From Nitrospirota bacterium (lineage in GTDB: Bacteria > Nitrospirota > UBA9217), in the NCBI GenBank assembly GCA_963751455.1, contig CAVVUN010000009.1, forward strand, positions 352,001-416,000: DNA of 64,000 bases. Reading direction: 5' to 3'. Positions 3,238-56,135 of this stretch are shown piece after piece. The notes beneath the pieces are model-generated. The model was given only the letters and a program-made list of their open reading frames with translations, did not search any database and was not told the DNA's origin. A program made the translations under genes and the position numbers. Numbering within the stretch: position 1 is the first letter of the stretch; each line of letters starts with the position of its first letter.

Positions 3238-3337
3238 GGTTTGTCTGGTTTATCTGGTTTGTCTGGTTCAACTAAGCAAACCAAACAAACCAAAGAAACT
3301 AAAAACACCAAAGAAACTAAAGAAACGAAATAAACTA
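3238..3337. repeat. 9-nt-period inverted repeat element (GGTTTGTCT arm, then AAACCAAAC arm)
   Basis: GGTTTGTCT GGTTTATCT GGTTTGTCT followed by AAACCAAAC AAACCAAAG AAACTAAAA..., between hldA and rmlA. Confidence 0.9.
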
Positions 3338-3355
3338 TTTTGACGAGGGTTCACC

Positions 3356-4249
3356 ATGAAAGGTATCATATTGGCAGGAGGCAGCGGTACACGGCTTTAT
3401 CCCATTACCCGGGGGGTATGCAAACAGCTGCTGCCCGTCTACGATAAGCCGATGATTTATTATCCGCTTTCCGTGCTTATGCTGTCCGGTATACGGGATG
3501 TTTTGATTATTTCAACTCCTGTTGATTTGCCTCGCTTTCAGGACATCTTCGGCAATGGAGAGGATTTGGGGCTCCGTTTTTCCTACAAGGAACAGCCGAA
3601 GCCGAACGGGCTTGCAGAAGCGTTCATTATCGGTGAGAACTTCGTCGGCCGGGACCCGGTTTGTCTTGTGCTGGGTGACAATATCTTTTTCGGTCACGGT
3701 CTTACCGGTATGCTCAAAAAGGCCGTAAAAGACGTGGAGAGCTCAGGTGGAGCAAGAGTATTCGGATATTATGTGAAGGACCCGGAGCGATACGGGATTG
3801 TGGAGTTTGATCCGAACGGGAATGTGCTTTCCATTGAGGAAAAACCAAATCAGCCGAGATCGCGATACGCTGTCACAGGCCTGTACTACTACGACAATCA
3901 GGTCGTGGACATAGCAAAGAACATAAAGCCGTCGCACCGTGGTGAATTGGAAATAACCGATGTGAATAATGTTTATCTCGCGCAGAAAAAGATTACGGTC
4001 GAACTGATGGGCCGCGGCTATGCATGGCTCGATACGGGGACCCATGAGAGCCTCCTCGATGCGGGCGAATTCATCGCTACGATAGAACGGCGCCAGGGCC
4101 TCAAGATGGCCTGTATTGAGGAAATCGCCTTTAAGCTGGGATATATCGACAGGGCGAAACTGCTCAAAGCCGCAGATTATCATAAAAAGAATTCCTACGG
4201 AGATTATCTCAAAATGATTGCCGAACATGAGGTGCCGCATGCCCTTTGA
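3356..4249 (+). CDS. rmlA: Glucose-1-phosphate thymidylyltransferase
   Basis: [37 protein letters not shown] and WLDTGT motifs. Confidence 0.97.
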
Positions 4250-4799
4250 ATTCACGGCTCTCAAGATCCCCGGGCTCGTGCTGGTAACACCCCGGGTCTT
4301 TGACGACGGCAGGGGGTTTTTTCTTGAATTCTACAAATATTCCGATTTCAGCAAAGCGGGGATAGGGGATCACCTTGTCCAGGACAACTATTCAAAATCT
4401 GTGAAGGGCGTTCTGAGGGGGCTGCACTATCAGAAAAATCCGAAGGCCCAGGGAAAACTGGTTTCGTGTATAAAAGGCAGGATTTACGATGTCGCCGTGG
4501 ACATTCGTAAAGGTTCCCCGCGATATGGCGCATGGCTGGGTGTCGAGCTTTCAGATAAAAATAAGCAAATGCTTTACGTGCCGTCCGGTTTTGCGCATGG
4601 CTTCCAGGTGCTCACCGATTCAGCTGAGATCATCTATAAGTGCACAGCCGAATATTCTCCGGCCGACGACCGCGGCATCATCTGGAATGATCCCGAGCTC
4701 AACATTGCCTGGCCGTTGAAAAATCCGTTATTATCAGCCAAGGATACAGCGCATCCTTTATTGAGAGCTGCCGATAATAACTTCTTATGGAGTGAATAA
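4239..4799 (+). CDS. rmlC: dTDP-4-dehydrorhamnose 3,5-epimerase
   Basis: [23 protein letters not shown] and GFAHGF motifs; ATG at 4239 overlaps the rmlA end. Confidence 0.95.
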
Positions 4800-4808
4800 A
4801 GCCTGATT

Positions 4809-4881
4809 CGTTTGTTTGGTTTGTTTAGTTTGTTTGGTTAACCAGATAAACTAAATGAACCAGATAAACCAGACAAACTGA
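4809..4881. repeat. 9-nt-period inverted repeat element
   Basis: GTTTGTTTGGTTTGTTTAGTTTGTTTGGTT then AACCAGATAAACTAAATGAACCAGATAAACCAGACAAAC, between rmlC and rmlD. Confidence 0.9.
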
Positions 4882-4886
4882 GACCT

Positions 4887-5732
4887 ATGAAATACCTTAT
4901 TACCGGCAGAAACGGCCAACTTGCCCGCGCATTCATCAAAAAATTCGAAGAACAGTCCATTGATTACAGCGCGCCCGACGAGTCGCAGCTCGACATAACC
5001 GATTTTGACGCCGTTTCCCAGGCTGTTTCGGGATTGAAGCCGGACGTGATCATCAACTGCGCGGCATATAATCTGGTGGACAGGGCGGAACTCGAACGGG
5101 AAAAGGCATTTGCGGTCAATGCCTCCGGGCCGGCGAATTTAGCCCGCGCGGCTGCGGATCGAGGAGCACTGCTGGTTCATTTCGGATCAGATTACGTATT
5201 CGACGGAATCAAGGAAAAAGGCCTTTACACTGAAGAAGACGCGGTCAATCCGCTCAATGAGTACGGAAAAAGCAAGCTTTCCGGTGAAAACTTTGTGTCT
5301 GAATCAGGCGCCCGCCATCTTGTACTGAGGCTTAGCTGGGTATTCGGCGACGGCAATCAGAATTTTATCCACAAGTTAATCGAATGGACGCGGAATAATG
5401 AATATCTCAAGATTGCTTGCGACGAATTTTCAGTTCCTACATACACAAATACAGTGGTCGATATGACCTTGAGAGCAATCAAGAATGATACGCGGGGACA
5501 TTACCATCTGACGAACAGCGGTTTTTGTTCTCGGTATGAATGGGCGAGACACATCGTTCAGGACCTCAAATTGAACAAATTCATACGCCCGGTCTCTATG
5601 GATATATTCAATCTGCCTGCAAAACGGCCAAAATTTTCAGCAATGAGCAACGCCGCCCTCTCCAGAGAACTGAACATCTCGATTCCATCCTGGGAAGAGG
5701 CGGTAAGCACGTTTTTACGGGAAAGGGCTTAG
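4887..5732 (+). CDS. rmlD: dTDP-4-dehydrorhamnose reductase
   Basis: ITG.NGQLA, INCAAYN.VD.AE, SDYVFDG and YGKSKL.GE motifs. Confidence 0.95.
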
Positions 5733-5734
5733 GT

Positions 5735-6877
5735 ATGCACATAAACCAGACGGATAATTCCGGCAGACCGGCGGTGTCGGCCAATATCCTGGTGACAGGC
5801 GGGGCGGGTTTTATCGGCTCTAATTTCATCAGGCACATTATCACGAAACAGGATTTTTGCGGCATTGTCGTCAATCTCGATAAGCTTACGTACGCCGGCA
5901 ACATGATGAATCTTGCCGACATAGAAAACAAATTCGGCGGCAAAAATTATTTTTTTGAACTCGGCGACATCTGCGATTTTGACAAGGTAAGAGCGGTGTT
6001 CGATAAATATCACATCAACATCGTCGTGCATTTTGCCGCTGAAAGCCATGTCGACCGTTCAATCTTCGGACCAAAGGAATTTGTAGAGACAAACGTCAAA
6101 GGCACTTTCTGCATGCTTGAGACTGCGCGGCAAACATGGAGCAACCGCAAGGATGTACGGTTTCACCACATCAGCACCGATGAAGTGTATGGTTCCCTGG
6201 GAAAAACAGGGTTCTTCCTGGAAACAACACCTTACGACCCGCGGAGCCCTTATTCAGCTTCCAAAGCCGCTTCAGACCACCTCGTAAACGCATACTTTCA
6301 TACCTACGGACTGCCGATCACGATTTCCAATTGTTCAAACAACTACGGTCCCTATCACTTTCCGGAGAAGTTGATCCCGCTCACGATCCTGAACGCTGTT
6401 GAGGGGAAACAACTGCCTATATACGGAGACGGCAAAAATGTCCGCGACTGGCTCTATGTCGAGGACCATTGCGAAGCTATCTGGACGATACTTTCCAGAG
6501 GAAAACCGGGCGAAACGTACAACATCGGCGGCGAATGCGAGAAGCGCAATATCGATGTGGTGAACGAGATATGCGCCGTCCTTGAGAAAGTATATCCCGC
6601 GAGCGAAAATCCCGCAATCCGCAATCCGCAATCCGCAATCCGCAATTACACGGATCTGATCACGTTTGTTTCGGATCGACCGGGTCATGACCGTCGTTAC
6701 GCCATTAACTGCGACAAGATCAAGAATGCTCTGGGGTGGAAACAAAATCACGACTTTGAAAAGGGTCTGAAAAATACCGTTGACTGGTTTCTCAAAAACA
6801 CGGACTGGGTAAATAACGTCAGAAGCGGCGAATATAAGAAGTGGCTGGAAAAAAACTATTCAGGCAGGACATCATGA
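5735..6877 (+). CDS. rmlB: dTDP-glucose 4,6-dehydratase
   Basis: [39 protein letters not shown] and [10 protein letters not shown] motifs; start placed at the ATG at 5735. Confidence 0.95.
6612..6646 (+). repeat. (CCGCAAT)x5 heptamer tandem repeat inside rmlB
   Basis: Five perfect copies, translated in frame as [12 protein letters not shown]. Confidence 0.95.
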
Positions 6878-6890
6878 GAGCAGGAGAGAT

Positions 6891-8222
6891 ATGAAGATTT
6901 CAGTAATAGGCACGGGCTATGTAGGCCTCGTAACAGGCACATGCCTTGCCGAAAGCGGCAATGACGTAATCTGCATGGACATCGATATAAAAAAGATCGA
7001 GCTGCTGAATAAAGGCGTCGTGCCGATCTATGAACCCGGGCTTGAAGAGCTCATAAAGCGAAACGTCAGTCATGGACGGCTCAGTTTCACGTCGGATATG
7101 GCGTCTTCCGTAAAAAATGCCGATATTATTTTTATTGCAGTAGGGACCCCACCCGGTCAGGACGGTTCCTGTGATCTGAAATACGTCATCGACGCTGCCC
7201 GGCAGGTAGGTACTCACATGAACGGGTATAAGGTCGTTATCAACAAGAGTACGGTACCCGTCGGAACCGGCGACAGGGTACGGGCCGCCCTCTCGTCCAA
7301 AACGAAACATAAATTCGACGTGGTTTCGAATCCCGAGTTCCTCAAGGAAGGGGCCGCGATCGACGACTTCATGAAGCCGGACCGTGTCGTGATCGGTGCT
7401 GATTCCGCGAGAGCTATTGCAGCTATGGAAGAGCTTTACGGCCCCTTTGTCCGGAAGGGGGACCGCATTCTGATTATGGATATCAAAAGCGCGGAAATGA
7501 CAAAATACGCGTCAAATGCCATGCTGGCAACCAAGATATCCTTCATAAACGAGATGGCGGTCATCTGCTCGAGCATGGGAGCGGACATCGACAGCGTCCG
7601 AAAAGGTATGGGCTATGACAGGCGGATCGGGTTCGAGTTCCTGTTCCCGGGTGTTGGCTACGGCGGGTCCTGTTTCCCGAAAGACGTGAAGGCCCTGGTC
7701 CGGACTGCGAAAGAATATGGTGTTGAGGCCAAGGTGCTTAAAGCCGTCGAGGCCGTGAACGACCGCCAGAAAAACGTTCTGTCCGACATGGTGCTCAAGC
7801 ACTTTGCCCCTCGCATTGCAAAGGGAAGAAAGGCGAGTAAACCGCTTGCCGGAATGACTATCGCGGTCTGGGGCCTCTCCTTCAAGCCGCGCACGGATGA
7901 CATGCGGGAGGCGCCGTCAGTCGTGATCATCAATAATCTCCTTCGGGCAGGCGCCAAGGTCAAGGCGCATGACCCGGTCGCCGAACCCGAAGCGCGGAAG
8001 ATATTCAAGAACAGAATAACCATCATGGACGACAGCTATGATGCTCTTCGCAAGGCAGACGCATTGGCTGTAGTGACCGAGTGGAATGAGTTCCGCACGC
8101 CCGATTTTAAGAAAATCAAACAACTGATGAATAAACCCGTGATCTTTGACGGAAGAAATATTTTTAACCAGGAAGAGCTGCTCAAGATGGGATTTACATA
8201 TTACGGGATAGGGAGAAGGTAA
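6891..8222 (+). CDS. ugd: UDP-glucose 6-dehydrogenase
   Basis: VIGTGYVGL, KSTVPVGT, SNPEFLKEG, GYGGSCFPKD and FKP.TDDMRE motifs. Confidence 0.95.
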   Translation: MKISVIGTGYVGLVTGTCLAESGNDVICMDIDIKKIELLNKGVVPIYEPGLEELIKRNVSHGRLSFTSDMASSVKNADIIFIAVGTPPGQDGSCDLKYVIDAARQVGTHMNGYKVVINKSTVPVGTGDRVRAALSSKTKHKFDVVSNPEFLKEGAAIDDFMKPDRVVIGADSARAIAAMEELYGPFVRKGDRILIMDIKSAEMTKYASNAMLATKISFINEMAVICSSMGADIDSVRKGMGYDRRIGFEFLFPGVGYGGSCFPKDVKALVRTAKEYGVEAKVLKAVEAVNDRQKNVLSDMVLKHFAPRIAKGRKASKPLAGMTIAVWGLSFKPRTDDMREAPSVVIINNLLRAGAKVKAHDPVAEPEARKIFKNRITIMDDSYDALRKADALAVVTEWNEFRTPDFKKIKQLMNKPVIFDGRNIFNQEELLKMGFTYYGIGRR

Positions 8223-8224
8223 GC

Positions 8225-8400
8225 AGTTTATCAGTATGTCTGGTTTGTTTGATTAATTTGGTTTGTCTGGTTTGTCTAGTTTGTTTGGTTTGCCTGGCTC
8301 ATTTGATTCAAAACAAACTAAACAAACCAAAGAAACTAAAGAAACTTTAATCAACAAAACAACCCAAATAAACTAAAGAAACCAAATCAACTAAATCAAC
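8225..8400. repeat. 9-nt-period inverted repeat element (long)
   Basis: GGTTTGTCT-type units followed by AAACTAAAC/AAACCAAAG-type units, between ugd and uxs. Confidence 0.9.
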
Positions 8401-8415
8401 TTTTTGGAGTAATTC

Positions 8416-9345
8416 ATGCGGATTCTGGTCACCGGCGGAGCCGGTTTTCTCGGTTCACACTTATGCGAACGATTGTTGGACGCAGGACACGAAGTCCTCT
8501 GTATGGACAATTTTTACACGGGCAGGAAGAAGAACGTTGCGGGAATGTTGAACAATCCGGTTTTCGAACTGGTGCGGCACGATATCGTTCTCCCTGTTCT
8601 TCTCGAAGTGGACAAAATTTACCATCTGGCATGCCCGGCTTCGCCGATTCATTACCAGTACAATCCGGTAAAGACTATCAAGACAAACATTCTGGGTACG
8701 CTCAATATGCTCGGCAACGCAAAACGAGTAAAGGCTCGCATGCTCCTCGCTTCGACTTCGGAGGTGTACGGGGACCCATCCGTTCATCCCCAGAAGGAAA
8801 ATTACTGGGGCAACGTCAATCCGATCGGCATCCGAAGCTGCTATGACGAGGGGAAACGGGTGGCCGAGACCCTGATGATGGACTATCATCGTCAAAACGG
8901 AGTGGACGTCAAGATCGTCCGGATTTTTAACACGTACGGGCCCCGCATGCTGCAGAATGACGGCCGCGTAGTGAGCAACTTCATTGTCCAGGCGCTCAAA
9001 GGCAATGATATTACGGTATATGGTGATGGTTCCCAGACCCGATCCTTCTGCTATGTGGATGATCTGGTCGACGGAATGGTGCGTATGATGGATTGCGAAA
9101 ATTTCATCGGCCCGGTAAATCTCGGGAACCCTGAGGAATATACGATACTCGATTTCGCAAAAAAAATCATAGCAATGACCGGTTCAGGATCCAAAATCGT
9201 GCACAAGCCGCTTCCCTCTGACGATCCGACCCAGCGCCAGCCCGATATCTCCCTGGCCGGATCAAAGTTGAACTGGAAGCCGAAGGTGAGCGTGGATGAC
9301 GGCTTGAAGAGGACGATTGAATATTTCAGGAAAGAACTGTCATGA
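8416..9345 (+). CDS. uxs: UDP-glucuronate decarboxylase (UDP-xylose synthase)
   Basis: [32 protein letters not shown] and RSCYDEGKR motifs. Confidence 0.92.
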
Positions 9346-9463
9346 TCGTCCATCGGCTACGGCAACGAGGCCCGTATCGTTAAGCGTTAAGCGGATACGG
9401 ACTGCCCAACACGAACGCCGTAACCCAACCACGAAACGGGCATCGTAACCGTGACCTTTTAAC
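9345..9463 (+). repeat. Dispersed copy of the CCCGTATCGT...ACGGGCATCGTAACC family
   Basis: ACGAGGCCCGTATCGT ... CGAAACGGGCATCGTAACC..CCTTTTAA matches the cores of the 19.2-19.8 kb repeat unit. Confidence 0.8.
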
Positions 9464-9473
9464 TACTATTCAA

Positions 9474-10289
9474 ATGAACCGAAGCAACCAGATGAACCAG
9501 ACAAACATGACAAACCATAAAAACCAGACAATCATCGCCGTCATTCCTTCCCGCTACGGGTCAACCCGGTTCCCCGGCAAAGCACTCGCAATGATTGAGA
9601 AAAAACCGATGATCCAGTGGGTTTACGAGCGCACAAAGCGTTCTCGCCTCATTACGCGGGTAATCGTGGCCACGGATGATGAACGCATCCGTAAGGCGGT
9701 TTCCGCTTTTGGAGGAGAAGCAATGATGACGTCGGCCGGCCATGCAACCGGTACGGATAGAATCGCCGAAGTGGTCCGTAAGCTTGATTGCGATATTGTT
9801 GTAAATGTTCAGGGAGATGAACCGCTGATCCATCCGGAGATGATCGACGAAGCTGTGACTCCTCTTGTGGACGACCCCTCCATTCCCATGGGCACTGTTT
9901 GCAGAAAGATTGAACGCCGTGATGAAGCTTTTGACGCTAATGTCGTCAAGGTGGTCTTCGATCGAAACGGGTTTGCGTTGTATTTTTCGCGGGCTCCGAT
10001 CCCGTGGGATCGAGACAGCCGAACAGGGAAAATATGTTTAACTGATATGCCTCTTGCAGGCGATATGTATAAGCATATCGGCCTCTATGCGTATCAGAGA
10101 GATTTTCTTTTACAGTACGCGCGGATGCCGCAAACAGGGCTTGAAGCCGTTGAAAAGCTCGAACAGCTGCGGGCGCTCGAATCCGGACATCGCATTAAAG
10201 TGGTTGTAACGAGCCATGAATCCTTTGGTGTTGACATCCCGGACGATTTGAGTAAAATACTGCAACGCCTCAAAGAAAGAAGAGATTAG
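9474..10289 (+). CDS. kdsB: 3-deoxy-manno-octulosonate cytidylyltransferase
   Basis: [38 protein letters not shown] and LEQLRALE motifs; N-terminus encoded by 9-nt repeats, so the start is uncertain. Confidence 0.95.
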
Positions 10290-10291
10290 GA

Positions 10292-11941
10292 ATGGAAAAG
10301 AAAAAACCTCCGACAAAGTACATTTTCGTGACGGGCGGAGTCGTTTCATCGCTCGGCAAGGGGCTTGCGGCGGCGTCCATAGGCGCTCTGCTCGAGAGCA
10401 GGGGGGTAAAGGTTACCTTTCTCAAGCTTGATCCTTACATAAATGTCGACCCCGGCACCATGAGTCCGTTTCAGCACGGAGAGGTTTATGTAACAGATGA
10501 CGGCGCCGAGACCGACCTCGATCTCGGACATTACGAACGGTATACGAACGTCACGACCGGTCAGAAGAACAACTTTACTTCCGGCAGGATATATAACAAC
10601 GTAATCAGCAAGGAACGAAGAGGGGACTATCTGGGTGGAACGGTTCAGGTGGTACCGCACGTTACGGATGAAATCAAGCGCGCGATTACGGACCTCGCCG
10701 ACGATGAGGAGGTCGTGATCGTCGAGATCGGCGGGACCATCGGCGACATAGAAAGTCTTCCGTTTTTGGAAGCCATCAGGCAATTGAGATATAATCTCGG
10801 CCGGCAAAATGTCCTGTATGTCCATCTTACGCTGGTGCCGTTTATAAAAGCTGCGGATGAGCTTAAGACTAAACCAACCCAGCACAGCGTCAAGGAACTG
10901 CTGTCCATAGGGATCCAGCCGAACATTCTGGTTTGCCGGAGCGAACGGCCCATACCGAAGGAGATGAAACGGAAGATTGCGCTCTACTGCAATGTTGAAG
11001 AGAATGCCGTTATCACCGCACTGGACGTCGATACCATATACGAGGTACCGATCCACCTGCATGAGGAAGGGATCGATGACAGGATAGTCGAGTTGCTCAA
11101 TCTTACCGTATCGGACCACAACCTGAACGCATGGGAAACGATCGTCCAGCGCGTCAAGCACCCGTCAAAGAACGTTACTATAGCCCTTGTCGGGAAATAC
11201 GTTGATCTCAAAGAAGCATATAAAAGCCTGTGTGAAGCATTGACCCACGGCGGCATAGCGAACGAAGCCCGTGTCGCAATCAACTGGGTGGATTCTGAAG
11301 ACATCGAGAGCAGGGGCGCTGAAGAAATGCTGAAAGGCGCCGATGGTATTCTCGTACCGGGCGGGTTCGGAATACGCGGCGTGGAAGGTAAAATCGCGGC
11401 CGTTAAATACGCCCGGGAAAGAAAGATACCGTATTTCGGGATCTGTCTCGGAATGCAATGTGCGGTGATCGAAGCAGCCCGCAATCTTGCGGACATCAAG
11501 GATGCGAACAGTTCCGAATTTGATCAGCAGACTCCCAATCCCGTCATTTACCTGATCGAGCAGTGGTTCGATTACCGGACCCAGTCGGTTCAAAAACGCG
11601 ACACAAGCTGCGATAAAGGCGGGAGCATGCGCCTCGGTTCCTATCCATGCAACATAGAAAAGGGCACTAACGCTTATCGGGCATACGGGAAAAATGCTAT
11701 TACCGAACGGCATCGCCACCGCTACGAGTTCAATAACCGTTACACGGAAACATTAAAAAAGGCCGGACTCGTTATCAGCGGTATTTCTCCGGACGGCGAA
11801 CTGGTAGAGATCGTGGAATACAAGGAACATCCCTGGTTTCTCGGCTGTCAGTTCCATCCGGAATTCAAATCGAGACCGCGCAATCCTCATCCCTTGTTCA
11901 CGGCGTTCATCGATGCGGCGCTGAAGAATAAGAGAAAATAG
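10292..11941 (+). CDS. pyrG: CTP synthase
   Basis: [44 protein letters not shown] and QFHPEF motifs. Confidence 0.98.
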
Positions 11942-12064
11942 TTTGTTTAGTTAGTTTGGTTTTTTTAGTTTCTTTGGTTTGTTTAGTTTCTTTTCGTTTC
12001 TTTGGTTTGTTTAGTTTCTCTAGCTTAAGGATAACGAAATAAACCAAACAAACAAGACAAACCG
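11941..12064. repeat. 9-nt-period inverted repeat element
   Basis: GTTTGTTTAGTTAGTTTGG... arm then AACGAAATAAACCAAACAAAC... arm, between pyrG and kdsA. Confidence 0.88.
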
Positions 12065-12083
12065 TTTTTTAAAGGCAATTAAT

Positions 12084-12908
12084 TTGACAAAGGAAATTCG
12101 CTTAAAAAATATCACGATCGGCGGCAATAATCCGCTCGTCTTGATCGCCGGGCCTTGCGTGATAGAATCCGAAGGAGCTGCGCTTGAAGCAGCAGCCAGG
12201 CTCAAGCGGATAACGGACGAGCTCGGCATACCGTTTATCTTCAAGTCATCCTTCGACAAGGCAAACCGCAGTTCCTTGAAGTCCTATCGCGGCCCGGGCA
12301 TGACCGAAGGCCTGAGGATACTTGCGCGCGTTGGAAGGGAATTGGACGTGCCGCTCCTGTCCGATGTCCACCGTTTCGAAGAGATAGGACCGTCATCCGA
12401 GGTTCTTGATATCCTCCAGATCCCGGCATTTTTATGCCGGCAGACTGATTTCGTTATGGATGTGGCGAAGACGGGCCGGATAGTCAATATCAAGAAAGGG
12501 CAGTTTCTTTCCCCGTGGGACATAAAAAATGCAGCTGAAAAAGCAGCGTCAACAGGCAACGATAAGATCATCATCACCGAACGCGGAGTTTCATTCGGGT
12601 ATAATAACCTCATCGCCGACATGCGCTCGCTGCCTATAATACGCGACGCGGGTTATCCCGTGGTATTCGACGCTACTCATTCGGTTCAGTTGCCCGGCGC
12701 AGCCGGAACGGCTTCGTCCGGTGACCGGAAATTCGTACCCTACCTCACCAGAGCGGCAACGGCCGCCGGCATTGATGCGTTGTTCATGGAAGTGCATGCC
12801 TGTCCGGACAAGGCGCTCTGCGACGGGCCGAACATGCTCGCACTGGACCAGCTTCCTGGACTCCTTAAGCAGGTGCGGGAAATAGACAGGATTGTAAAAT
12901 CACTCTAG
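12084..12908 (+). CDS. kdsA: 3-deoxy-8-phosphooctulonate synthase
   Basis: IAGPCVIES, KSSFDKANRSS, QIPAFLCRQTD and FDATHSVQ.PG motifs. Confidence 0.97.
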   Translation: MTKEIRLKNITIGGNNPLVLIAGPCVIESEGAALEAAARLKRITDELGIPFIFKSSFDKANRSSLKSYRGPGMTEGLRILARVGRELDVPLLSDVHRFEEIGPSSEVLDILQIPAFLCRQTDFVMDVAKTGRIVNIKKGQFLSPWDIKNAAEKAASTGNDKIIITERGVSFGYNNLIADMRSLPIIRDAGYPVVFDATHSVQLPGAAGTASSGDRKFVPYLTRAATAAGIDALFMEVHACPDKALCDGPNMLALDQLPGLLKQVREIDRIVKSL

Positions 12909-12993
12909 TTCAGAGAGTTTGTTTAGTTTTTTTGGTTTCTTTGGTTTAGAACCAGATAAGCCAAATAAACCAGACAAACGACATAAACCAAAA
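12906..12993. repeat. 9-nt-period inverted repeat element
   Basis: AGTTTGTTTAGTTTTTTTGGTTTCTTTGGTTT then AACCAGATAAGCCAAATAAACCAGACAAAC, between kdsA and kdsD. Confidence 0.88.
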
Positions 12994-12994
12994 C

Positions 12995-13966
12995 ATGACA
13001 ATAGAACAGGCAAAAAAAGTTCTCCGGATTGAAGCGGATGCAGTCGCTGCGCTTATTGACCGGGTCGATTACCGGTTTGAATTGGCCGTAAAGATGATTC
13101 TGAACTGCAACGGCCGGGTCGTGGTGACGGGCATGGGCAAGTCGGGCCTGATAGGCAAAAAGATAGCGGCGACTCTGGCGTCCACGGGCACGCCCGCGCT
13201 CTTTCTCCATCCTGCAGAGGGAATCCACGGAGACCTTGGTATGGTTACGAGGGGAGATACCGTGATTGCCCTTTCGAACAGCGGCGAGACCGAGGAGATT
13301 GCGAGGATGTTGCCTTCCCTCAAGCGGCTGGGCATAAAAATCATTTGTTTTACCGGCAATACCGAATCAACTCTTTCAAAAAACAGCGACGTCGTAATAG
13401 ACGTCGGAGTTAAGGAGGAAGCCTGCCCGCTGGGGCTGGCGCCGACTGCGAGTACTACGGCTACCCTGGCGATGGGAGACGCATTGGCTGTGGCGCTTCT
13501 TGCACAGAGAGGTTTCAAGGAAGAAGATTTTGCCTGCTTTCATCCGGGCGGCACTCTCGGAAAAAAACTGCTTCTCAGGGTACGGGACCTTATGCATATA
13601 GGTGACGAGATTCCTGTTGTTTCGGAAGGGACTCTGATCAAAGACGCAATCTACGAAATATCTTCAAAAAAAATGGGGATCACCGCGGTATTGGACGGAA
13701 CAGGAAGCCTTGTCGGCGTCATCTCCGATGGAGATCTCCGTCGGTGGATGGAGAAGACGGAAAAGAGCGGCGAGAATCTTCTGACCAAAAAGGCAAAGGA
13801 CATCATGACCACAAAGCCGAAAGTCGCCAACAAGGACTCCCTGGCGGCAGAAGCTGTTGCAATCATGGAAAATAATTCTATCACGTGCCTTATTGTATCC
13901 GACGGCAGCGCCAAACCGGAAGGGGTCATCCATTTGCATGATCTTCTGAAGGCGGGAGTGGTTTGA
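12995..13966 (+). CDS. kdsD: Arabinose-5-phosphate isomerase (KpsF/GutQ family, SIS plus CBS domains)
   Basis: GMGKSG.IG.KIAATLASTGTP, HGDLG, EACPLGLAPTASTT and FHPGG.LG motifs. Confidence 0.95.
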   Translation: MTIEQAKKVLRIEADAVAALIDRVDYRFELAVKMILNCNGRVVVTGMGKSGLIGKKIAATLASTGTPALFLHPAEGIHGDLGMVTRGDTVIALSNSGETEEIARMLPSLKRLGIKIICFTGNTESTLSKNSDVVIDVGVKEEACPLGLAPTASTTATLAMGDALAVALLAQRGFKEEDFACFHPGGTLGKKLLLRVRDLMHIGDEIPVVSEGTLIKDAIYEISSKKMGITAVLDGTGSLVGVISDGDLRRWMEKTEKSGENLLTKKAKDIMTTKPKVANKDSLAAEAVAIMENNSITCLIVSDGSAKPEGVIHLHDLLKAGVV

Positions 13967-13968
13967 TA

Positions 13969-14024
13969 TGGAGCGAGCCGACCGCGTCGGCGTAAAAATA
14001 CGGCAACACGGTTGCCTTGGTCCA
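13969..14024. repeat. REP/REPIN-like palindrome pair upstream of the RAYT-like gene
   Basis: TGGA-gcga-GCCGAC cgc GTCGGC ... GGCAAC acg GTTGCC-ttgg-TCCA. Confidence 0.75.
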
Positions 14025-14035
14025 AAATATAATGT

Positions 14036-14578
14036 ATGGAAAAATATAAGACGTACGCTCATACGCTGCCTCATTTATATCGTGCTAATGCTAAATATTT
14101 TATAACTGCATCAACATACGAAAAAAAGAAGATTTTTGACAATGCTGCCAAAGAGAAATAGTTATCTTGTCTACTCAAAGCCTGTTTGAACCAGGGATGG
14201 GAGCTTGAAGATTGGGTCATTCTTGATAATCATTACCATATAATGGTAAACGGACCTGGCAATGAAATATTTCTTTCGAAGTTTATCGCTGAATACCATA
14301 AATTTACGGCTTTGTTTATGAAGAAAAATTATGCCGAGCTGGCAAAACTGCCAAAGGTTTTTAACAATTATTGGGATACGTGTATTACGTATGAAAGATC
14401 ATATTTTGCCAGGTTGAATTATCTATACAATAATCCTGTTAAACATGGATATGTACGGAAGGCACATGATTATGAATGGGGCAGTTTCTTTATCAGATAT
14501 AACGAAGATGAACTTTCTATAGATAAGCTGCTGAATCAGTTTCCTTGTGATACGGTTAACATAGAAGACGATTTTTAA
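14036..14578 (+). pseudogene. REP-associated (Y1/HUH) tyrosine transposase-like gene with an in-frame TAG at 14159-14161
   Basis: The ATG at 14036 is in frame with ORF 14186..14578; YFITASTY, WVILDNHYH (HUH) and YLYNNPVKHGYV..DYEWGS motifs; one premature stop. Confidence 0.8.
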
Positions 14579-14581
14579 TAA

Positions 14582-14605
14582 CGGCAACATGGTTGCCTTG
14601 GTCCA
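14582..14605. repeat. REP-like palindrome downstream of the RAYT-like gene
   Basis: CGGCAAC atg GTTGCC TTGGTCCA, a near-identical direct copy of 14001-14024. Confidence 0.8.
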
Positions 14606-14610
14606 TAAAA

Positions 14611-15129
14611 ATGAAAAAATCAACCCAGAGCCTTCGAACGAAGGCGAAACAAATAAAACTTATCCTGCTTGACGTCGACGGAGTGATGACGGACGGAAGC
14701 ATCATTCTCGACAACCAGGGTAATGAAATGAAGGCGTTTCACGTGCGGGACGGCCGGGGCGTTAAACTGGCTCAAAAAGCCGGCATACTGTTCGGGATTA
14801 TTACCGGCAGATCGTCGGAAGTCGTAAACGTTCGTGCCCGCGAACTGGGCATAACCGACGTCTTTCAAGGCGCGCAGGACAAAATTACGGCATATGAGTC
14901 ACTGCTTGCGAAGTATAAACTTCGCGACGCAGAAGTGGCCTATATAGGGGATGACGACATCGACGTGTCTATCTTCAAAAGAGTGGGACTTGCCGCCACG
15001 GTAGCCGACGCGGACCCCTCCGTTAAGCCGCATGTGGACATGGTAACAAAGGCAGCCGGCGGCAGAGGCGCGGTGCGTGAAGTGATAAACCTTGTCCTCG
15101 AAAGTCAGCGTAAATTGCGGGCGTCATGA
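14611..15129 (+). CDS. kdsC: KDO 8-phosphate phosphatase (HAD family)
   Basis: LLDVDGVMTDG, F.VRDG.G, ITGR, YIGDD.ID and GG.GAVRE motifs. Confidence 0.93.
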   Translation: MKKSTQSLRTKAKQIKLILLDVDGVMTDGSIILDNQGNEMKAFHVRDGRGVKLAQKAGILFGIITGRSSEVVNVRARELGITDVFQGAQDKITAYESLLAKYKLRDAEVAYIGDDDIDVSIFKRVGLAATVADADPSVKPHVDMVTKAAGGRGAVREVINLVLESQRKLRAS

Positions 15130-16025
15130 ACAGGTGGGCGGTTAAAACCAGGAAAAAGCTGAACAGGGTCTCTGTTCTCTGGTCTGCCAGGCTCGTCTTG
15201 ATGTTGTCGAAATTGCTGCCGTACCGTCTGGGAGTAAGAGCAGGCGGTTGTCTGGGCTGGGTCGGATACTACCTGATCCATCGTGAAAGAACAAGGGCGC
15301 TCATACACCTCCGGTCAGCATTCCCGGACAAGAGTGAAGCCTGGATACGCCGTACAGCGCGCCGCTGCTTCATGCATCTCGGGAAATCCGTTCTCGAAAT
15401 GACGCTCATGTCTCCGGTCCGGCTTGCGAAGGCATCCACGCTGGAGGGCGCCGAAAATCTTGAACGGGCATTCAGCCGGGGAAAGGGCGTCATTTACTTT
15501 ACCGGGCACGTCGGAAACTGGGAATTGTCGGGCGGCGTGCTCGCATCAAGATATCCTTTGAGCGTCGTAGCTGCTCCTCTTGATCCCGAGCCGTTAAATG
15601 ACCTGATCTTAAAACTTCGGAGCAGGATCGGGATCAGGGTCATCCTTCGGGGCAGGCCCGGGGCATCCCGGGAGCTGATACGCGTTTTCAGGGAGAACAG
15701 GATCCTCGGGCTGCTCATCGACCAGGACACGGATGTTGACGGAACGTTCGTTGATTTCATGGGAAGGCCTGCCTGGACGCCGACTGCGGCCGCCTCAATG
15801 GCGATAAAATTCGATGCGCCGGTGGTTTTCGGCTACGCCCAACGCGGCAAAGATAACAATCATACGATAACGATAGAAGGGCCGCTCGAACTGGTCCGGA
15901 CCGGCAATGACGAGCAGGATATAATCACCAACACGGCGCTGTTCACAAAAAAAATAGAAAACTCTATCATGCGGAACCCCGAGCAATGGGTGTGGATGCA
16001 CCGGCGGTGGAGGAGAATGCCTTGA
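15126..16025 (+). CDS. Lipid A biosynthesis acyltransferase (LpxL/HtrB family)
   Basis: TGHVGNWE, LIDQD..FVDFMG and PEQWVWMHRRW motifs. Confidence 0.88.
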   Translation: MNRWAVKTRKKLNRVSVLWSARLVLMLSKLLPYRLGVRAGGCLGWVGYYLIHRERTRALIHLRSAFPDKSEAWIRRTARRCFMHLGKSVLEMTLMSPVRLAKASTLEGAENLERAFSRGKGVIYFTGHVGNWELSGGVLASRYPLSVVAAPLDPEPLNDLILKLRSRIGIRVILRGRPGASRELIRVFRENRILGLLIDQDTDVDGTFVDFMGRPAWTPTAAASMAIKFDAPVVFGYAQRGKDNNHTITIEGPLELVRTGNDEQDIITNTALFTKKIENSIMRNPEQWVWMHRRWRRMP

Positions 16026-16576
16026 AAATATTTAACGTACCGAATCTTTTGTCGATCAGCAGAATACTGTCCGTGCCGATATTTATCTCGCTGATGCTCG
16101 AGCCGAATCCCGTACGGGCGCTTCTTGCAGGAATTGTTTTTTCTCTGGCCTCCGCAACGGACTGGCTGGACGGATACCTGGCGCGAAAATGGGGGCAGGT
16201 CACCAAGATCGGCAAGCTGCTGGACCCGATCGCGGACAAAATCCTGATCATGTCCGCTTTGGTCATCCTCGTTGAAATCCGGTCCGATGTGGTCCATGCC
16301 TGGATAGCGATCATTATCATCGGCAGGGAATTTGCGGTCACCGGCCTCCGTGCGATCGCATCGAGCGAGGGAATCATAATCCCTGCTGAGACTGTAGGCA
16401 AATACAAGGTGGGAGCGCAGATTACCGCGGTGCTTTCGCTTCTTCTCGATTATTATCTGGATAAAGGCTGGGTAACGGACGTCGGAAGGGTCGCCCTCTG
16501 GGTGGCGATGATTCTTGCCGTTTACTCCGCCGTCCAGTATTTCAGATCGTACTGGAGTAAGTTAAATAACCGGTGA
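16022..16576 (+). CDS. pgsA: CDP-diacylglycerol--glycerol-3-phosphate 3-phosphatidyltransferase
   Basis: NVPNLLSISR, TDWLDGYLARK..QVT..GKLLDPIADK and REFAVTGLR motifs; TTG start at 16022. Confidence 0.93.
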   Translation: MKIFNVPNLLSISRILSVPIFISLMLEPNPVRALLAGIVFSLASATDWLDGYLARKWGQVTKIGKLLDPIADKILIMSALVILVEIRSDVVHAWIAIIIIGREFAVTGLRAIASSEGIIIPAETVGKYKVGAQITAVLSLLLDYYLDKGWVTDVGRVALWVAMILAVYSAVQYFRSYWSKLNNR

Positions 16577-16595
16577 TTTGCGAACCATAGAACTT

Positions 16596-16712
16596 GTTTA
16601 TTTAGTTTGTCTTGTTTGTCGGGTTTATCTGGTTTGAAACCAAAGAAACTAAACAAACCAAATGAACTAAACAAACCCAACAAACCAAACAAACGAAACA
16701 AACCAAATGAAC
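16596..16712. repeat. 9-nt-period inverted repeat element overlapping the plsY start
   Basis: GTTTATTTAGTTTGTCTTGTTTGTCGGGTTTATCTGGTTT then AAACCAAAGAAACTAAACAAACCAAATGAAC... Confidence 0.9.
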
Positions 16713-17306
16713 TTCTTCTATCAACCCCTTGCCGTCATCATTTCCTATCTTATCGGAAGCACTCCGTTCGGTGTCATTTTCACGAGATTCTTTTCGGATA
16801 TCGACGTCAGGACCGTGGGAAGCGGCAATATCGGAGCAACGAATGTCCTGCGGGCCGCAGGGAAAAAGGCGGCCATACTTACTTTACTCTCTGACTGTCT
16901 GAAAGGTGTGATTCCGGTTCTTGTGGTCAAGACCCTTTTACAGGATGATTGGACAACGGTTGCCTCTGGGGCGGCCGCTGTTTTGGGTCATAATTTCCCC
17001 ATTTATCTCAAGTTTAAAGGAGGGAAGGGCGTGGCAACAAGCTACGGAGTAGTCCTTGCCATAGTTCCCAAAATAGGCGTTATCTGTCTGGTCGCATGGC
17101 TGGCTGCCGCTCTTGTCTGGCGTTATTCGTCCCTGTCCGCGCTTGCTTCCTTCGCGCTCTTTCCGCTACTGACCTTCATCACTTTCCCTGAATCCAAGCC
17201 GCTCGGTCTTCTATCTCTCTTCGTATTCGGCATGATCTATTACCGGCACCGGGAAAACATCAAGCGACTTATCGCAGGGACGGAGCCGAAGATAGGAAAG
17301 AAATAA
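16707..17306 (+). CDS. plsY: Glycerol-3-phosphate acyltransferase
   Basis: SYLIGS.PFG, GSGNIGATNVLR, GHNFPIYLKFKGGKGVAT and RHRENIKRL motifs. Confidence 0.95.
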   Translation: MNFFYQPLAVIISYLIGSTPFGVIFTRFFSDIDVRTVGSGNIGATNVLRAAGKKAAILTLLSDCLKGVIPVLVVKTLLQDDWTTVASGAAAVLGHNFPIYLKFKGGKGVATSYGVVLAIVPKIGVICLVAWLAAALVWRYSSLSALASFALFPLLTFITFPESKPLGLLSLFVFGMIYYRHRENIKRLIAGTEPKIGKK

Positions 17307-17314
17307 CGGTTTAT

Positions 17315-17446
17315 AATCGCCATTTCGGTCCGACGGTAACGAAGCCCGTATCGTGGAACGTCAGACGGTAACGTAAAAGACCTCATATACGACAACCGTA
17401 ACCAAAAACCAAAAGGGGCATCGTAACCCTAACCTTTTAAACCCGG
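17315..17446 (+). repeat. Dispersed CCCGTATCGT family copy directly upstream of four-helix-bundle gene 1
   Basis: ACGAAGCCCGTATCGTGGAA ... GACCTCA...ACGACAACCGTAACCAAAAACCAAAAGGGGCATCGTAACC..CCTTTTAAACC. Confidence 0.88.
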
Positions 17447-17767
17447 CATACGTTCTCAAACTTGAGGGCAAAATGGTTGACACTAAAAAGCGCATAACGA
17501 GTTTTCGTGATTTAGAAGTTTACCAAAGCACGTATTCGATTTGTATAAAAGTAATGACTGAATTGCTGCCTAAATTGCCAGATATGGAAAAATACGATTT
17601 AAGAGACCAATTAAGCAGATCATCGAAAGCCATCCCCAGGCTAATCGCGGAAGGATATGGGAAACGGCATCAAAAAGCCGGGTTTCAAAAATATCTTGAT
17701 GATGCCATGGCAGAATGCAACGAAACCATGGTAGGTTTGGAAATGTGTCGCGATATTTATAAAAAAC

Positions 17768-19098: not shown

Positions 19099-19212
19099 AT
19101 AAAAAACATATAATAGGCTTCCCAATCGATGAAACGATAGATCTCTACGACAAGGCAGGCAGACAAATATATAATCTTGCCAAAGCGTGGTCGCAGTTTA
19201 AGCGCGAAACCA

Positions 19213-19843
19213 GTAACCAAAAACCGAAACCGGCATCGTAACCTTTCAAACCGGTCATCGTCTGTTGGTGACGAAACCCGTATCGTGGAAAGCGACCTCA
19301 AACACGACAACCGTAACCAAAAACCGAAACGGGCATCGTAACCTTTTAAACCGGTCATCGTCTGTTGGTGACGAAACCCGTATCGTGGAAAGCGACCTCA
19401 AACACGACAACCGTAACCGAAAACCGAAACGGGCATCGTAACCTTTTAAACCGGTCATCGTCTGTTGGTGACGAAACCCGTATCGTGGAAAGCGACCTCA
19501 AACACGACAACCGTAACCAAAAAAACCGAAACGGGCATCGTAACCTTTTAAACCGGTCATCGTCTGTTGGTGACGAAACCCGTATCGTGGAAAGCGACCT
19601 CAAACACGACAACCCTAACCAAAAACCAAAACAGGCATCGTAACCTTTTAAACCGGTCATCGTCTGTTGGTGACGAAACCCGTATCGTGGAAAGCGACCT
19701 CAAACACGACAACCGTAACCAAAAAAACCGAAACGGGCATCGTAACCTTTTAAACCGGTCATCGTCTGTTGGTGACGAAACCCGTATCGTGGAAAGCGAC
19801 CTCAAACACGACAACCCTAACCAAAAACCAAAACAGGCATCGT
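19213..19843 (+). repeat. Tandem array of 100/102-bp units (6 full and 1 partial)
   Basis: Units start at 19213, 19313, 19413, 19513, 19615, 19715 and 19817; near-identical with no unique spacers. Confidence 0.97.
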
Positions 19844-53092: not shown

Positions 53093-53152
53093 GGATCAGT
53101 TGGATTGCTTAGACTAATTCGACCAAGATGAACCAATACAACCAATAAAACC

Positions 53153-53989: not shown

Positions 53990-54405
53990 ATAGAAATAAC
54001 GGCAAAACCTGCCGCAAGAAAATGTTTGTCGAATGCGAATGCTTTACTGATTTTTTGTCGTTTCATGATCGTAAAGCTCACCGCATCGGCATAGCTAAAA
54101 TCCTGACCGGAGTATTTGCCCAGCATCGCCTGCGCTTCAGCTTCGATATCCTCGGTTGAATATACCCGCATAATCCTCGGACTTGTCTTCACTCGTTCAA
54201 GAAAGGCAAAAGCCGCTGCATGTCCCAATTCATTCAAAAGAATGACATACGCCTCGGCAATAACTAAATTGCTGGTTATCAGAGGGCTGTTCCTTGAGAG
54301 AAGAGAGGGATATACTGCTGCGGCTTTTTTATGGTTTGCATCGTCGGTGTCCGCCAGCGCAATCCACGCGCCGGCATCAACAAATACTGCCTCGTGAAGC
54401 CTCAT
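53986..54405 (-). CDS. PIN-domain (VapC) toxin
   Basis: VFVDAGAWIAL..D..H, VIAE, SYADAVSF..M and AFAFDKHF..AGF motifs. Confidence 0.9.
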   Translation of the reverse strand: MRLHEAVFVDAGAWIALADTDDANHKKAAAVYPSLLSRNSPLITSNLVIAEAYVILLNELGHAAAFAFLERVKTSPRIMRVYSTEDIEAEAQAMLGKYSGQDFSYADAVSFTIMKRQKISKAFAFDKHFLAAGFAVISI

Positions 54406-54659
54406 CTCCTGCCTGCTCTTTGGTACTTCACCAGGTATTTGTCGTGATGCTCGGAGATGTCTCCTTTGCCTGAGTTTCCGAGCCCGACAAGGCCCATAGC
54501 CGGATCCTCCTCAACCGGGAGCGCGGTCAAATATTTCTCGATGCTTTCCCGTATCAACTCAGCCTTTGACACCCCGCGCTTCTTAGCCAGGACTGCGAGC
54601 GCCGCATCCTGAGCCGGCTCGATATACATTTGAATGGGCTTTTTCTTAAGATTTTTCAT
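54402..54659 (-). CDS. Ribbon-helix-helix (CopG) antitoxin
   Basis: IQMYI...LA..RGVSKAELIRESIEKYL; DISEHHDKYL; overlaps the toxin start. Confidence 0.88.
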   Translation of the reverse strand: MKNLKKKPIQMYIEPAQDAALAVLAKKRGVSKAELIRESIEKYLTALPVEEDPAMGLVGLGNSGKGDISEHHDKYLVKYQRAGRR

Positions 54660-54714
54660 AAAGAAAATATATATCATAAATTGTGATATGTCCATAGGTA
54701 ATATAGGTCAATTT

Positions 54715-54970
54715 ATCGTCGAAGTTATCGTTGTTCGTCTCACGCATCGAGTCCCGTATCGAATAGATTCAGCGATGAGCACGAACCACGTGACCATAAA
54801 CCGAAACGGGCGTCAGAACCCTAGCCGGTTTACCACTTGACCATCCTTGAAACGGTAGTTCGTCTAAGGGAACGAAGCCCGTATCGTGGACCGTAAAAGC
54901 GGTTTACGGTTAAAGCCGAACAACGACCAACCGATCGCCGAAACGGGCATCCCAACCTTAACCTTTTTAA
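54715..54970 (+). repeat. Two diverged copies of the CCCGTATCG...CCGAAACGGG family
   Basis: GTCCCGTATCGAA...CCGAAACGGGCGTC and ACGAAGCCCGTATCGTGGA...CCGAAACGGGCATCCCAACC..CCTTTTTAA. Confidence 0.78.
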
Positions 54971-55156
54971 TCTCAATTAATCAGCCTACAAAAGAGACGG
55001 CATCACGGATGCCTCGATCCAAACAAACCAAACAAACAATGACTTAAACCTACAAATCTAACCTTAAACTTTATCTTTCCCATTGTCCGATAATGTATAT
55101 TATGTCAAATCATAATCCAATAAGCAAAAACACTTTAATTCACAATACTCCCTTCT

Positions 55157-56040
55157 CTAAATGTGTTTATTATGTATCAGACCGCTGCCGTAATCGGCAG
55201 CATGGTAGGAACTCCTGACGTGCGGTCCTGATGCAACCTGACGAAATCCCAAATCAAAAGCCATGTCGCGAAGCTGCTTGAATTCATCCGGGATGATAAT
55301 ACTTTTCCACCGGCAAACTGCTTTTCCCCGGCCTTAGGTACTGTCCGAGCGTTAAAAAAGTACAGCCGTTGTTGCGGAGTTCTTTCATGACCCGGAGAAC
55401 TTCTTCATTTCCCTCCCCTAATCCCAGCATTAAACCCGTTTTCGTCACAGCTCCCAATTTCACGTGCATTTGCGAGCAGTTCTATCGAACGTCTATAATC
55501 AGCTCCCGGACGCACTCGTGAATACAGAGACGGCACTGTTTCAATGTTGTGATTGAGGATATCGGGTTTTGCGTCGAGGATGGTTCGAAGCGAGGCTGCA
55601 GAACCCTGGAAGTCCGGTATAAGAACTTCAACCCTGCATCCAGGAGATTTCGTTCGAATTGCCCGAATAGTTTCTGCGAAGAGAAACGCCCCGCCGTCAG
55701 CCAGATCGTCACGGGTCACGGATGTAATTACCGCATAGCGGAGACCGAGTGCTGCAACGGCATCGGCGATTCGATATGGTTCGTCGAAGTCGGCGTCGTC
55801 AGGTAGACCTTTCGGAACATTGCAGAAGCGGCACGATCGCGTGCAAATATTACCCAGGATCATGAATGTCGTTGTTCCCGCGTTCCAGCATTCCAGCCTG
55901 TTCGGGCAGGCAGCGCTTTCACAAACGGTGTGAAGTCTGCCCTCCTTGATCAATCTGCGGACCTTTGAGTGGCGCTCTCCTGCTTCGATTCGTATCTTGA
56001 ACCAGGGAGGAAGTCTTTTGATGGTCTGGGAAGAAGTCAT
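55157..56040 (-). pseudogene. lipA: Lipoyl synthase with two +1 frameshifts (near 55460 and 55290)
   Basis: TVCESAACPN..ECW, CTRSCRFC, NHNIETV; continues TKTGLMLGLGE..GQYLRP, then [14 protein letters not shown] in successive frames. Confidence 0.88.
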
Positions 56041-56044
56041 TAAG

Positions 56045-56135
56045 TGGTTTGTTTGGTTTGTTTGGTTTGTTTGGTTTGTTTGGTTTGTTTGGTTTTGGTT
56101 TCTGTAACCAAATAAACCCGACAAACCAAACAAAC
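56045..56135. repeat. 9-nt-period inverted repeat element between lon and lipA
   Basis: (GGTTTGTTT)x5 then AACCAAATAAACCCGACAAACCAAACAAAC. Confidence 0.92.

Follow-up and report, generated by a model that had tools for sequence, protein, structure and literature searches.

The arrays of a nine-nucleotide word found at the gene junctions of a 64,000-nt stretch of a Nitrospirota genome (assembly GCA_963751455.1, contig CAVVUN010000009.1, positions 352,001 to 416,000; hereafter the window) belong to a dispersed family of repeat-armed palindromes of fixed polarity. In the reading that we favor, and to which we give an even chance of being right, these palindromes would be relatives, without a gene of their own, of a cassette encoding a 23S-rRNA-intervening-sequence protein (IVP; PF05635), and their stems are predicted to be cut by RNase III in operon transcripts. 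The copies are likely selfish foldback inserts comparable to the intervening sequences (IVSs) of rRNA. The family extends across the phylum with a patchy copy number, it is one of many word families of the same build, and it is tied to an IVP cassette; these features speak for selfish foldback DNA more than for a signal designed to act at junctions.

The genome (G000; 5.72 Mb in 15 contigs, with the window at 352001-416000 of contig C9) is one whose window genes have their nearest protein relatives in metagenome-assembled genomes of Nitrospirota. The repeated word is AAACYARAN, its reverse complement being written GGTTTGTYT, and its core columns reach frequencies of 0.97 (A2), 0.96 (A3) and 0.92 (C4) among 218 in-phase units. 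A nine-column profile built from these units and applied with a threshold of 22 bits over three units detected 50 arms in the genome and none in a block-shuffled version of it. The arms merge into 30 elements; removal of five coding look-alikes leaves 25 genome-wide, ten of which fall inside the window, which makes up 1.1% of the genome. The discarded matches (C15:1377475, 1385680, 1386601 and 1397315; C1:712689) arise from coding "NQINETNETNN" motifs in large paralogous open reading frames (ORFs), which imitate three units.

Twenty of the elements are two-armed. A simpler consensus scan recovered 19 of them, and none in three shuffled genomes; the twentieth, at C15:96175, was scored as one-armed by that scan and was added by eye. 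In all 20 the arms read 5'-(GGTTTGTYT)n...(AAACYARAN)n-3', whichever strand carries them, so that a G/T arm precedes an A/C arm, and the reverse order was never seen. The elements are some 60 to 170 nt long, with loop distances of about 0 to 40 nt. An earlier note on this DNA had described most copies as a G/U-rich arm followed by an A/C-rich one, an arrangement that applies to seven of the ten strong copies in the window, the other three being A/C-only tracts. These copies, two weak ones and the IVP gene are listed here with the means of detection (TRF, Tandem Repeats Finder; profile, unit profile; fold, RNA folding; Pfam).

3234-3340: two-armed, G/T then A/C, between the gene for a pfkB-type sugar kinase (stop 3221) and rmlA (start 3356); TRF arrays 3238-3268 and 3278-3335, profile, Pfam; minimum free energy (MFE) of the fold -26.9 kcal/mol.
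4805-4883: two-armed, between rmlC (stop 4799) and rmlD (start 4887); TRF arrays 4810-4839 and 4840-4878, profile, Pfam; 28 uninterrupted pairs, MFE -37.6.
8238-8401: two-armed, between the genes for UDP-glucose dehydrogenase (stop 8222) and an NAD-dependent epimerase (start 8416); TRF arrays 8237-8297 and 8311-8401, profile, fold, Pfam.
9476-9529, plus strand: A/C-only tract over the first in-frame ATGs of kdsB; TRF 9474-9531, profile.
11936-12067: two-armed, beginning at the pyrG stop codon (11939-11941) and finishing 17 nt before the TTG start of kdsA (12084), with a long G/T arm (91 nt) and a short A/C arm; TRF 11939-12017, profile, fold.
12912-12993: two-armed, between kdsA (stop 12908) and kdsD (start 12995); TRF 12916-12947 and 12950-12990, profile, fold.
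16591-16708: two-armed, between pgsA (stop 16576) and plsY, the last unit ending in the plsY ATG (16707); TRF 16605-16636 and 16637-16707, profile, fold.
24545-24642, plus strand: two A/C arrays on the 5' side of the IVP cassette; TRF 24544-24584 and 24597-24629, profile.
24648-25076, plus strand: IVP gene (PF05635, E 1.1e-27), bracketed by 9-nt arrays.
25038-25207, plus strand: longest A/C array (17.7 units), overlapping the IVP stop and extending into the wzi ORF; TRF 25038-25195, profile, Pfam (Wzi).
53131-53152, plus strand: weak A/C tract of 2.4 units, just upstream of an ORF starting at 53153; TRF only.
55019-55037, plus strand: weak tract of 2.1 units in the spacer downstream of lipA; TRF only.
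56042-56140: two-armed, in the gap separating lon (stop 56140) from lipA (ATG near 56041), both on the minus strand; 5.7 perfect units in one arm (56045-56095), other array 56106-56135; TRF, profile, fold, Pfam.

The earlier note had listed 13 copies. TRF finds period-9 arrays at 12 of these sites, and it finds none at ~52290, where the sequence is merely A-rich; that site and those at ~53100 and ~55018 lie under the 22-bit threshold, so three of the listed copies are weak or absent. The profile scan does agree with the note that single-arm copies are A/C-rich on the sense strand, and that the AT-rich block at 29-47 kb (GC 0.34-0.44) is free of copies, since no arm was detected between 25207 and 56042. 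The same note took the degeneracy of the units as an argument against recent slippage. Most arrays are indeed only 70-91% matched (TRF), with the 56045-56095 array and the short 55019 tract as exceptions, and the argument fails at 56045, where the 5.7 perfect copies indicate that slippage is recent.

Placement is biased as well as polarity, as a scan of the whole genome bears out. Co-oriented genes flank 18 of the 20 hairpins, one of the other two occupying a divergent gap at glnD and the other being unresolved; set against the 58.5% of intergenic bases that crude ORF calls assign to co-oriented gaps, this gives a binomial p of ~0.002. For the 13 hairpins outside the window, Pfam annotation of the flanking ORFs places the co-oriented copies at the junctions ftsY>zapA, murD>ftsW, uvrA>methyltransferase, aroF>tyrA, NIF3>purE, HlyD>AcrB, NlpC/P60>comM-like, AAA22>cheW, cyclase>orf, orf>wza-like and sigma factor>response regulator. 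The G/T arm mostly begins 0-25 nt past a stop codon and the A/C arm ends 0-40 nt before a start, so that copies nearly fill the stop-to-start gap; spacer sequences and Pfam flanks thus uphold the earlier description of tracts that separate co-oriented genes and stop close to the following start codon. Protein-coding genes border or contain the ends of all 25 copies, and none is in an rRNA helix (rRNA genes were not inspected).

Three start codons, those of kdsB, plsY and wzi, belong to the array itself. In kdsB, three in-frame ATGs lie inside the array and the Pfam CTP_transf_3 match begins at residue 21; in wzi, the ATG (25152) and the first ~17 codons (25152-25207) are repeat units (MNQTNQKNETNQTNQKN), followed by a hydrophobic signal-like stretch. 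Motifs resembling a Shine-Dalgarno (SD) site precede ~9-10 of the 22 junction genes by eye, and the baseline over 2851 well-defined starts is 44%; the two frequencies being equal, the A/C arm is not visibly replacing the SD site, and we rejected such a replacement as an explanation of the arrays. The order of genes in the window is sugar kinase, rmlA, rmlC, rmlD, rmlB, ugd, epimerase, kdsB, pyrG, kdsA, kdsD, kdsC, lipid A acyltransferase, pgsA and plsY, and later the IVP gene, wzi, an island and wza, followed by lipA and lon on the opposite strand (Pfam). Nine of the ten window copies flank genes for lipopolysaccharide (LPS), 3-deoxy-D-manno-octulosonate (KDO), rhamnose, phospholipid or capsule.

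The family is not peculiar to this locus or genome: it is phylum-wide, patchy in copy number, and one of many word families of the same build. The word is matched in 28 of 401 genomes of the phylum and in eight of the 64 genomes of the window's own taxonomic family. Genomes of several Nitrospirota families carry it, in very unequal numbers. Matches number 152 in G372, 140 in G214, 115 in G272, 94 in G283, 91 in G204 and 46 in G000, and 0-4 in congeners. In 80 genomes of other lineages, the loci around the epimerase gave just 3-unit background matches; the closest metagenome relative of KdsA is 76% identical. Outside G000 the G/T-then-A/C polarity holds in all 27 two-armed copies inspected (20 of 20, from 13 loci, in G372; five of five in G228, G370, G326, G198 and G332 together; two of two in G283), and the context is again mostly co-oriented, plsY and pgsA included, with some divergent gaps. 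G000 itself contains 2,691 short-period arrays of many word families (AAATCTGCG, AAATTGC, AATCCGC, AGCGCAT and others), mostly intergenic. Several of these families form inverted pairs, each with one fixed polarity, and 30 of 39 such pairs lie between co-oriented genes.

Orthologous junctions indicate how these elements come and go. The pgsA|plsY junction carries the word in four of 30 loci of the taxonomic family, in two genera (G042, G019 and G041 included). In genus g63, a hairpin of this word is present at cheY|cheZ in eight and at cheZ|motA in nine of 11 close orthologs, with unit numbers and variants that differ between species; one species has a hairpin of a 7-nt word in its place, and one or two have none. 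At pyrG|kdsA and kdsA|kdsD, hairpins of other words occur at exactly these junctions in five and six of 30 relatives, while in most relatives the genes abut or overlap, with an ATGA-type stop/start overlap at kdsA|kdsD in 22 of 30. We also note that in G372, a genome from another taxonomic family, plsY and pgsA lie at separate loci, yet each stands beside a hairpin of the AAACYARAN word (L265:2837-2948; L269:1491-1600 and 2271-2358); an ancestral pgsA-hairpin-plsY unit that split at the repeat could have given this arrangement.

The tie to IVP genes is both physical and phylogenetic. The layout [G/T][A/C]-IVP-[A/C] seen in the window recurs in G006, G214 and G272, the latter two contributing two cases among the 28 IVP genes that were inspected across four g63 genomes with many copies. 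The IVPs of G006, G214 and G272 are 76, 56 and 56% identical to the window IVP, and no more than 42% identity is reached by the other 22 IVPs in the alignment (the second IVP of the window and 21 from the four g63 genomes), so that one IVP lineage sits inside these arms in four genomes of two taxonomic families. IVP genes are also bracketed by other words. Short-period arrays detected by TRF flank 25 of the 28, on both sides in 17, and in G000 all four good IVP genes are repeat-bracketed. Upstream of the window's IVP cassette, at 24355-24432, 7-nt AACTNNN units and ATGCGCT-type units each form a run; these two word families also build the hairpins of relatives at pyrG|kdsA and kdsA|kdsD.

That the two-armed copies could form long imperfect hairpins, as had been proposed, is borne out by folding, which yields such structures for 20 of 20 copies (MFE -14.3 to -42.3 kcal/mol, z -1.4 to -8.1). 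Covariation between the arms is a different matter, since arms from the same copy pair no better than arms from different copies. In G000, own-arm duplexes average -30.3 kcal/mol against -32.2 for cross duplexes (p 0.96; a comparison in which element 8238 was split at the wrong loop), and ungapped complementarity reveals no own-arm excess (p 0.92); in the 20 elements of G372, own arms are the worse partners (-33.5 vs -36.1, p 0.987), and the lengths of the two arms show no correlation (rho -0.15). Just ten of 20 copies have a sense RNA that is stabler than its antisense (Wilcoxon p 0.81). Since own arms have no pairing advantage and sense is no stabler than antisense, the tests give no indication that a particular RNA structure has been selected.

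Nor do the hairpins resemble rho-independent terminators, a point on which the earlier note stands. Their stems are rich in A/U and G/U rather than G+C, they are followed on both strands by A/C-rich sequence instead of a U run, and no intrinsic-terminator form results. A terminator consensus scan of 3000-17500 returned 19 sites against 16.5 expected and called no large hairpin, its site at 3234-3250 lying within a G/T arm. Among known RNA families, an Rfam scan of the whole window at gathering thresholds matched tRNA alone.

The closest parallel that we see is with the IVSs of 23S rRNA. These IVSs are bordered by a stem, may carry an S23p/PF05635 ORF, and are excised by RNase III; they occur in Coxiella, Leptospira and Salmonella, are sporadic, and are regarded as selfish (PMC4990558). 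The Nitrospirota copies share with them the complementary borders that form a long stem and the sporadic distribution, and share with the ORF-bearing ones a PF05635 gene, here at 24648-25076 inside 9-nt arrays. Unlike them, the copies lie between protein-coding genes, their stems are tandem arrays of a short word, and most have no gene. RNase III excision, shown for rRNA IVSs (PMC4990558), is only predicted for the Nitrospirota hairpins; G000 has one RNase III gene.

We infer that the gene-less hairpins are linked to the IVP cassette, from which they would derive or like which they would spread. If the gene between the cassette's two direct A/C arrays were lost, what remained would be exactly a G/T-then-A/C hairpin, which would explain the fixed polarity. 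By analogy with rRNA IVSs, the elements would be co-transcribed with the flanking operon genes, fold-back of the element RNA would bring the flanks together again, and RNase III cleavage of the stem would make the insert tolerable at a stop-start junction. The neighboring genes would for the most part be unaffected, changes in mRNA stability or downstream translation being possible side effects. The patchy copy numbers, the replacement by hairpins of other words and the absence of arm covariation all fit selfish DNA with a fast turnover. The elements may nevertheless have a secondary part in regulation, given that junctions are reused and that the sequence beside cheZ is mildly conserved. We would also put forward, tentatively and as something considerably less probable than not, a wider proposal: an IVP, a small four-helix-bundle protein, and its cognate word might together form an unrecognised genetic element that, along with gene-less hairpins in far greater number, colonises the stop-start junctions of operons across the Nitrospirota, with IVP lineages co-diversifying with their words and ribosomal IVSs as the special case that was noticed first. 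Such co-diversification would imply sequence-specific recognition.

Several observations weigh against this interpretation. Only four IVP cassettes with AAACYARAN arms were found; G372, which has the highest copy number, has five IVP genes and none with these arms, G204 has none either, and G283 (94 matches, 100% complete) is without any PF05635 match. A cognate IVP is therefore not needed for a high copy number today. We likewise discarded IVP copy number as the driver of the repeats, given the ~4 good IVP genes of G000 and the lack of any in G283. Filled and unfilled orthologous junctions, when compared, revealed neither a clean empty site nor a target-site duplication; in G425 the cheY|cheZ spacer lacks the element but is not a clean excision, and no transposase was found for the elements. 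The 40 nt upstream of cheZ are 81% conserved, as compared to 71% at third codon positions, and this conservation, together with the repeated hits on the same junctions in different genera, could mean that a function is selected and not that the inserts are tolerated. Outside the window, genes were called crudely as longest ORFs, with Pfam checks at the flanks only.

The conservation of the cheZ leader and the repeated gain of hairpins at the same junctions also figure among the points in favor of purpose-built intercistronic RNA elements, an alternative that we consider unlikely. Here the A/C arm would serve the downstream gene as a leader without structure or as a standby site for ribosomes. 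The G/U arm would keep it masked, and the stem would be opened by a ribosome that terminates at the nearby stop upstream; the element would replace an ancestral ATGA-overlap coupling, or its stem would protect the upstream mRNA. The fit of the arms to the 0-25 nt after stops and 0-40 nt before starts agrees with this, as do the start codons of kdsB, plsY and wzi inside the array, the A/C sense strand of every one-armed copy, and the overlapping stop and start codons that element-free relatives have at the same junctions; comparable roles have been proposed, not shown, for the short tandemly repeated repetitive (STRR) sequences of cyanobacteria (PMC2670836) and for TAACTGA repeats (PMC4679880). 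Such an RNA would be hard to reconcile with arms that have no excess of own complementarity and no correlation in length, with sense transcripts stabler than antisense in only 10/20 copies (p 0.81), with SD motifs at the 44% baseline level, with a copy number that runs from 0 to 152 inside one genus, and with copies in divergent gaps. If the word rather than the stem is what is recognised, arms would be expected to keep the family consensus without tracking each other, as they do, and the arrays might then be sites on double-stranded DNA for an abundant DNA-binding protein, either nucleoid-associated or a global regulator. Inverted arrays at variable distance match the description of such sites in Geobacter, including one at proB/proA (PMC2700814). 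We think this distinctly improbable, as the copies are located within operons and not at promoters, the 9-bp period is off the helical repeat, the many words of the same build in one genome would each need a protein of their own, and no candidate protein emerged except for the IVP link.

We would give very little weight to the two remaining possibilities. One is that the arrays are slippage-prone contingency loci that vary the expression of surface-polysaccharide genes. Nine of the ten window copies do flank genes of the LPS, KDO, rhamnose, phospholipid or capsule pathways, one array (56045-56095) has 5.7 perfect units, and unit numbers vary among species at the same junction. Yet the match between units is only 70-90% in most arrays, a period of 9 is divisible by three, housekeeping genes (uvrA, aroF/tyrA, purE, murD/ftsW, ftsY/zapA) are flanked too, and the perfect array adjoins lon and lipA, with no surface gene; a long perfect tract in a promoter or reading frame, as in contingency loci, was not found. 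The other is that we are looking at elements akin to REPINs, paired repetitive extragenic palindromic (REP) sequences, mobilised in trans by a RAYT (REP-associated tyrosine transposase; Y1_Tnp). REP/REPIN-RAYT systems and repeats resembling miniature inverted-repeat transposable elements (MITEs), such as Correia and the enterobacterial repetitive intergenic consensus (ERIC), are numerous extragenic hairpins that are co-transcribed and long-lived, with copy numbers that vary between lineages. The present hairpins are likewise inverted pairs, extragenic, numerous, long-lived and different in number between lineages; G000 has 33 Y1_Tnp matches, each of four high-copy genomes has 1-3, and three of four low-copy congeners have none. 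Of seven Y1_Tnp loci in G372, G214, G272 and G283, however, not one has an arm within 1.5 kb, and none of the 32 G000 matches examined is flanked by arrays within 1.2 kb, apart from the degenerate remnant in the window (14087-14374, IS200/RAYT-type), which is 1.1 kb from the nearest. This remnant lies between kdsD and kdsC, has an internal TAG, and scores 34 bits. With no arm-flanked Y1_Tnp gene among those examined, we rejected a link to a RAYT transposase. The arms are moreover tandem arrays and not single REP palindromes, which sets them apart from MITE-like repeats as well. MITEs have terminal inverted repeats, a target-site duplication and a defined length; here inverted arms are present, lengths range over about 60-170 nt, and filled and unfilled junctions gave no clean empty site or duplication. 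No cognate transposase flanked by arms was found.

The architecture of these elements is known piecemeal from other bacteria. The paired tandem-repeat sites of Geobacter metallireducens, which have been read as sites for a global regulator of the IHF/HU type (Aklujkar et al. 2009, PMC2700814), also consist of three to five tandem units of 7-9 nt, paired on opposite strands at variable distance, in dozens of copies, some of them within one operon (proBA) and with several word classes per genome. Their words are GTTGCTYN, TCTCCGTS[Y] and MTYCTGA, as opposed to AAACYARAN here, and the compared parts of that report (PMC2700814) describe no link to an IVP, no fixed-polarity rule and no cross-phylum survey. 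The cyanobacterial STRR hairpin at hupS-hupL is similarly intergenic, built of tandem units and located between co-transcribed genes, and roles in transcript stability and translational coupling have been proposed for it; its units are heptamers of different words, in contrast to the period of 9 found here (PMC2670836). The TAACTGA repeats of marine Beggiatoaceae (MacGregor 2015, PMC4679880) resemble our arrays as tandem words that end a few nucleotides from start codons and are patchy, cross-phylum and without an evident mobility mechanism. They differ in being heptamers in 2-6 copies, with 169 direct sets and one indirect, and in the reported rarity of SD sites after them (PMC4679880), which is not seen here. 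Our search of the literature on intergenic, tandem, palindromic and hairpin repeats of Nitrospirae and Nitrospira found no description of the AAACYARAN family, nor of its polarity rule, phylum spread or tie to an IVP lineage (the Geobacter supplementary figures lie outside this comparison); in the RepRanger paper, Nitrospira appears in a table only.

Intergenic short tandem-word repeats such as STRR, TAACTGA and the Geobacter sites have been noted for decades without explanation. The AAACYARAN family provides a tractable case, with a single word, a strict polarity, 0 to ~150 copies within one genus, orthologous junctions that display gain, loss and replacement of elements, and a physical and phylogenetic tie to one lineage of 23S-IVS protein. 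If the link is true, rRNA intervening sequences, PF05635 proteins and intergenic tandem-word hairpins would be connected puzzles. There is also a practical consequence for the annotation of Nitrospirota genomes, in which these elements lengthen the spacers and create spurious ORFs, and in which genes such as kdsB and wzi take a start codon and an N-terminal repeat peptide from them.

Other repeats accompany the family. A second dispersed motif of ~18 nt, of the type GA[AT]ACGGGCNTCGTNACC, has 41 matches in the genome at no more than three mismatches and often occurs in inverted pairs ~70 nt apart, and it brackets the other IVP gene of the window (17473-17805). In G283 it directly adjoins 9-nt arrays, and the elements are therefore mosaics. 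Its copies in the window are as follows.

9433-9450: ~18-nt motif, before the kdsB tract.
17335-17352, minus strand: ~18-nt motif.
17411-17428: ~18-nt motif.
19226-19747: ~18-nt motif copies.
54803 and 54940: ~18-nt motif.

A 100-nt tandem repeat at 19208-19843 (6.3 copies, 95% identity) contains the motif in each of its units. At 6612-6646, five perfect CCGCAAT heptamers lie in the reading frame of rmlB and are translated in a variable loop before a conserved stretch; this word family has 65 arrays genome-wide. Within the AT-rich polysaccharide island (29-47 kb), an ORF at 40392-41315 encodes an integrase of the rve family, and its presence in an island free of the repeats fits a recent acquisition of the island. 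Finally, an ORF at 60080-63226 for a molybdopterin oxidoreductase resembling formate dehydrogenase has an in-frame TGA at 60683-60685 (...HQARI*HSATV), which is probably a selenocysteine codon.

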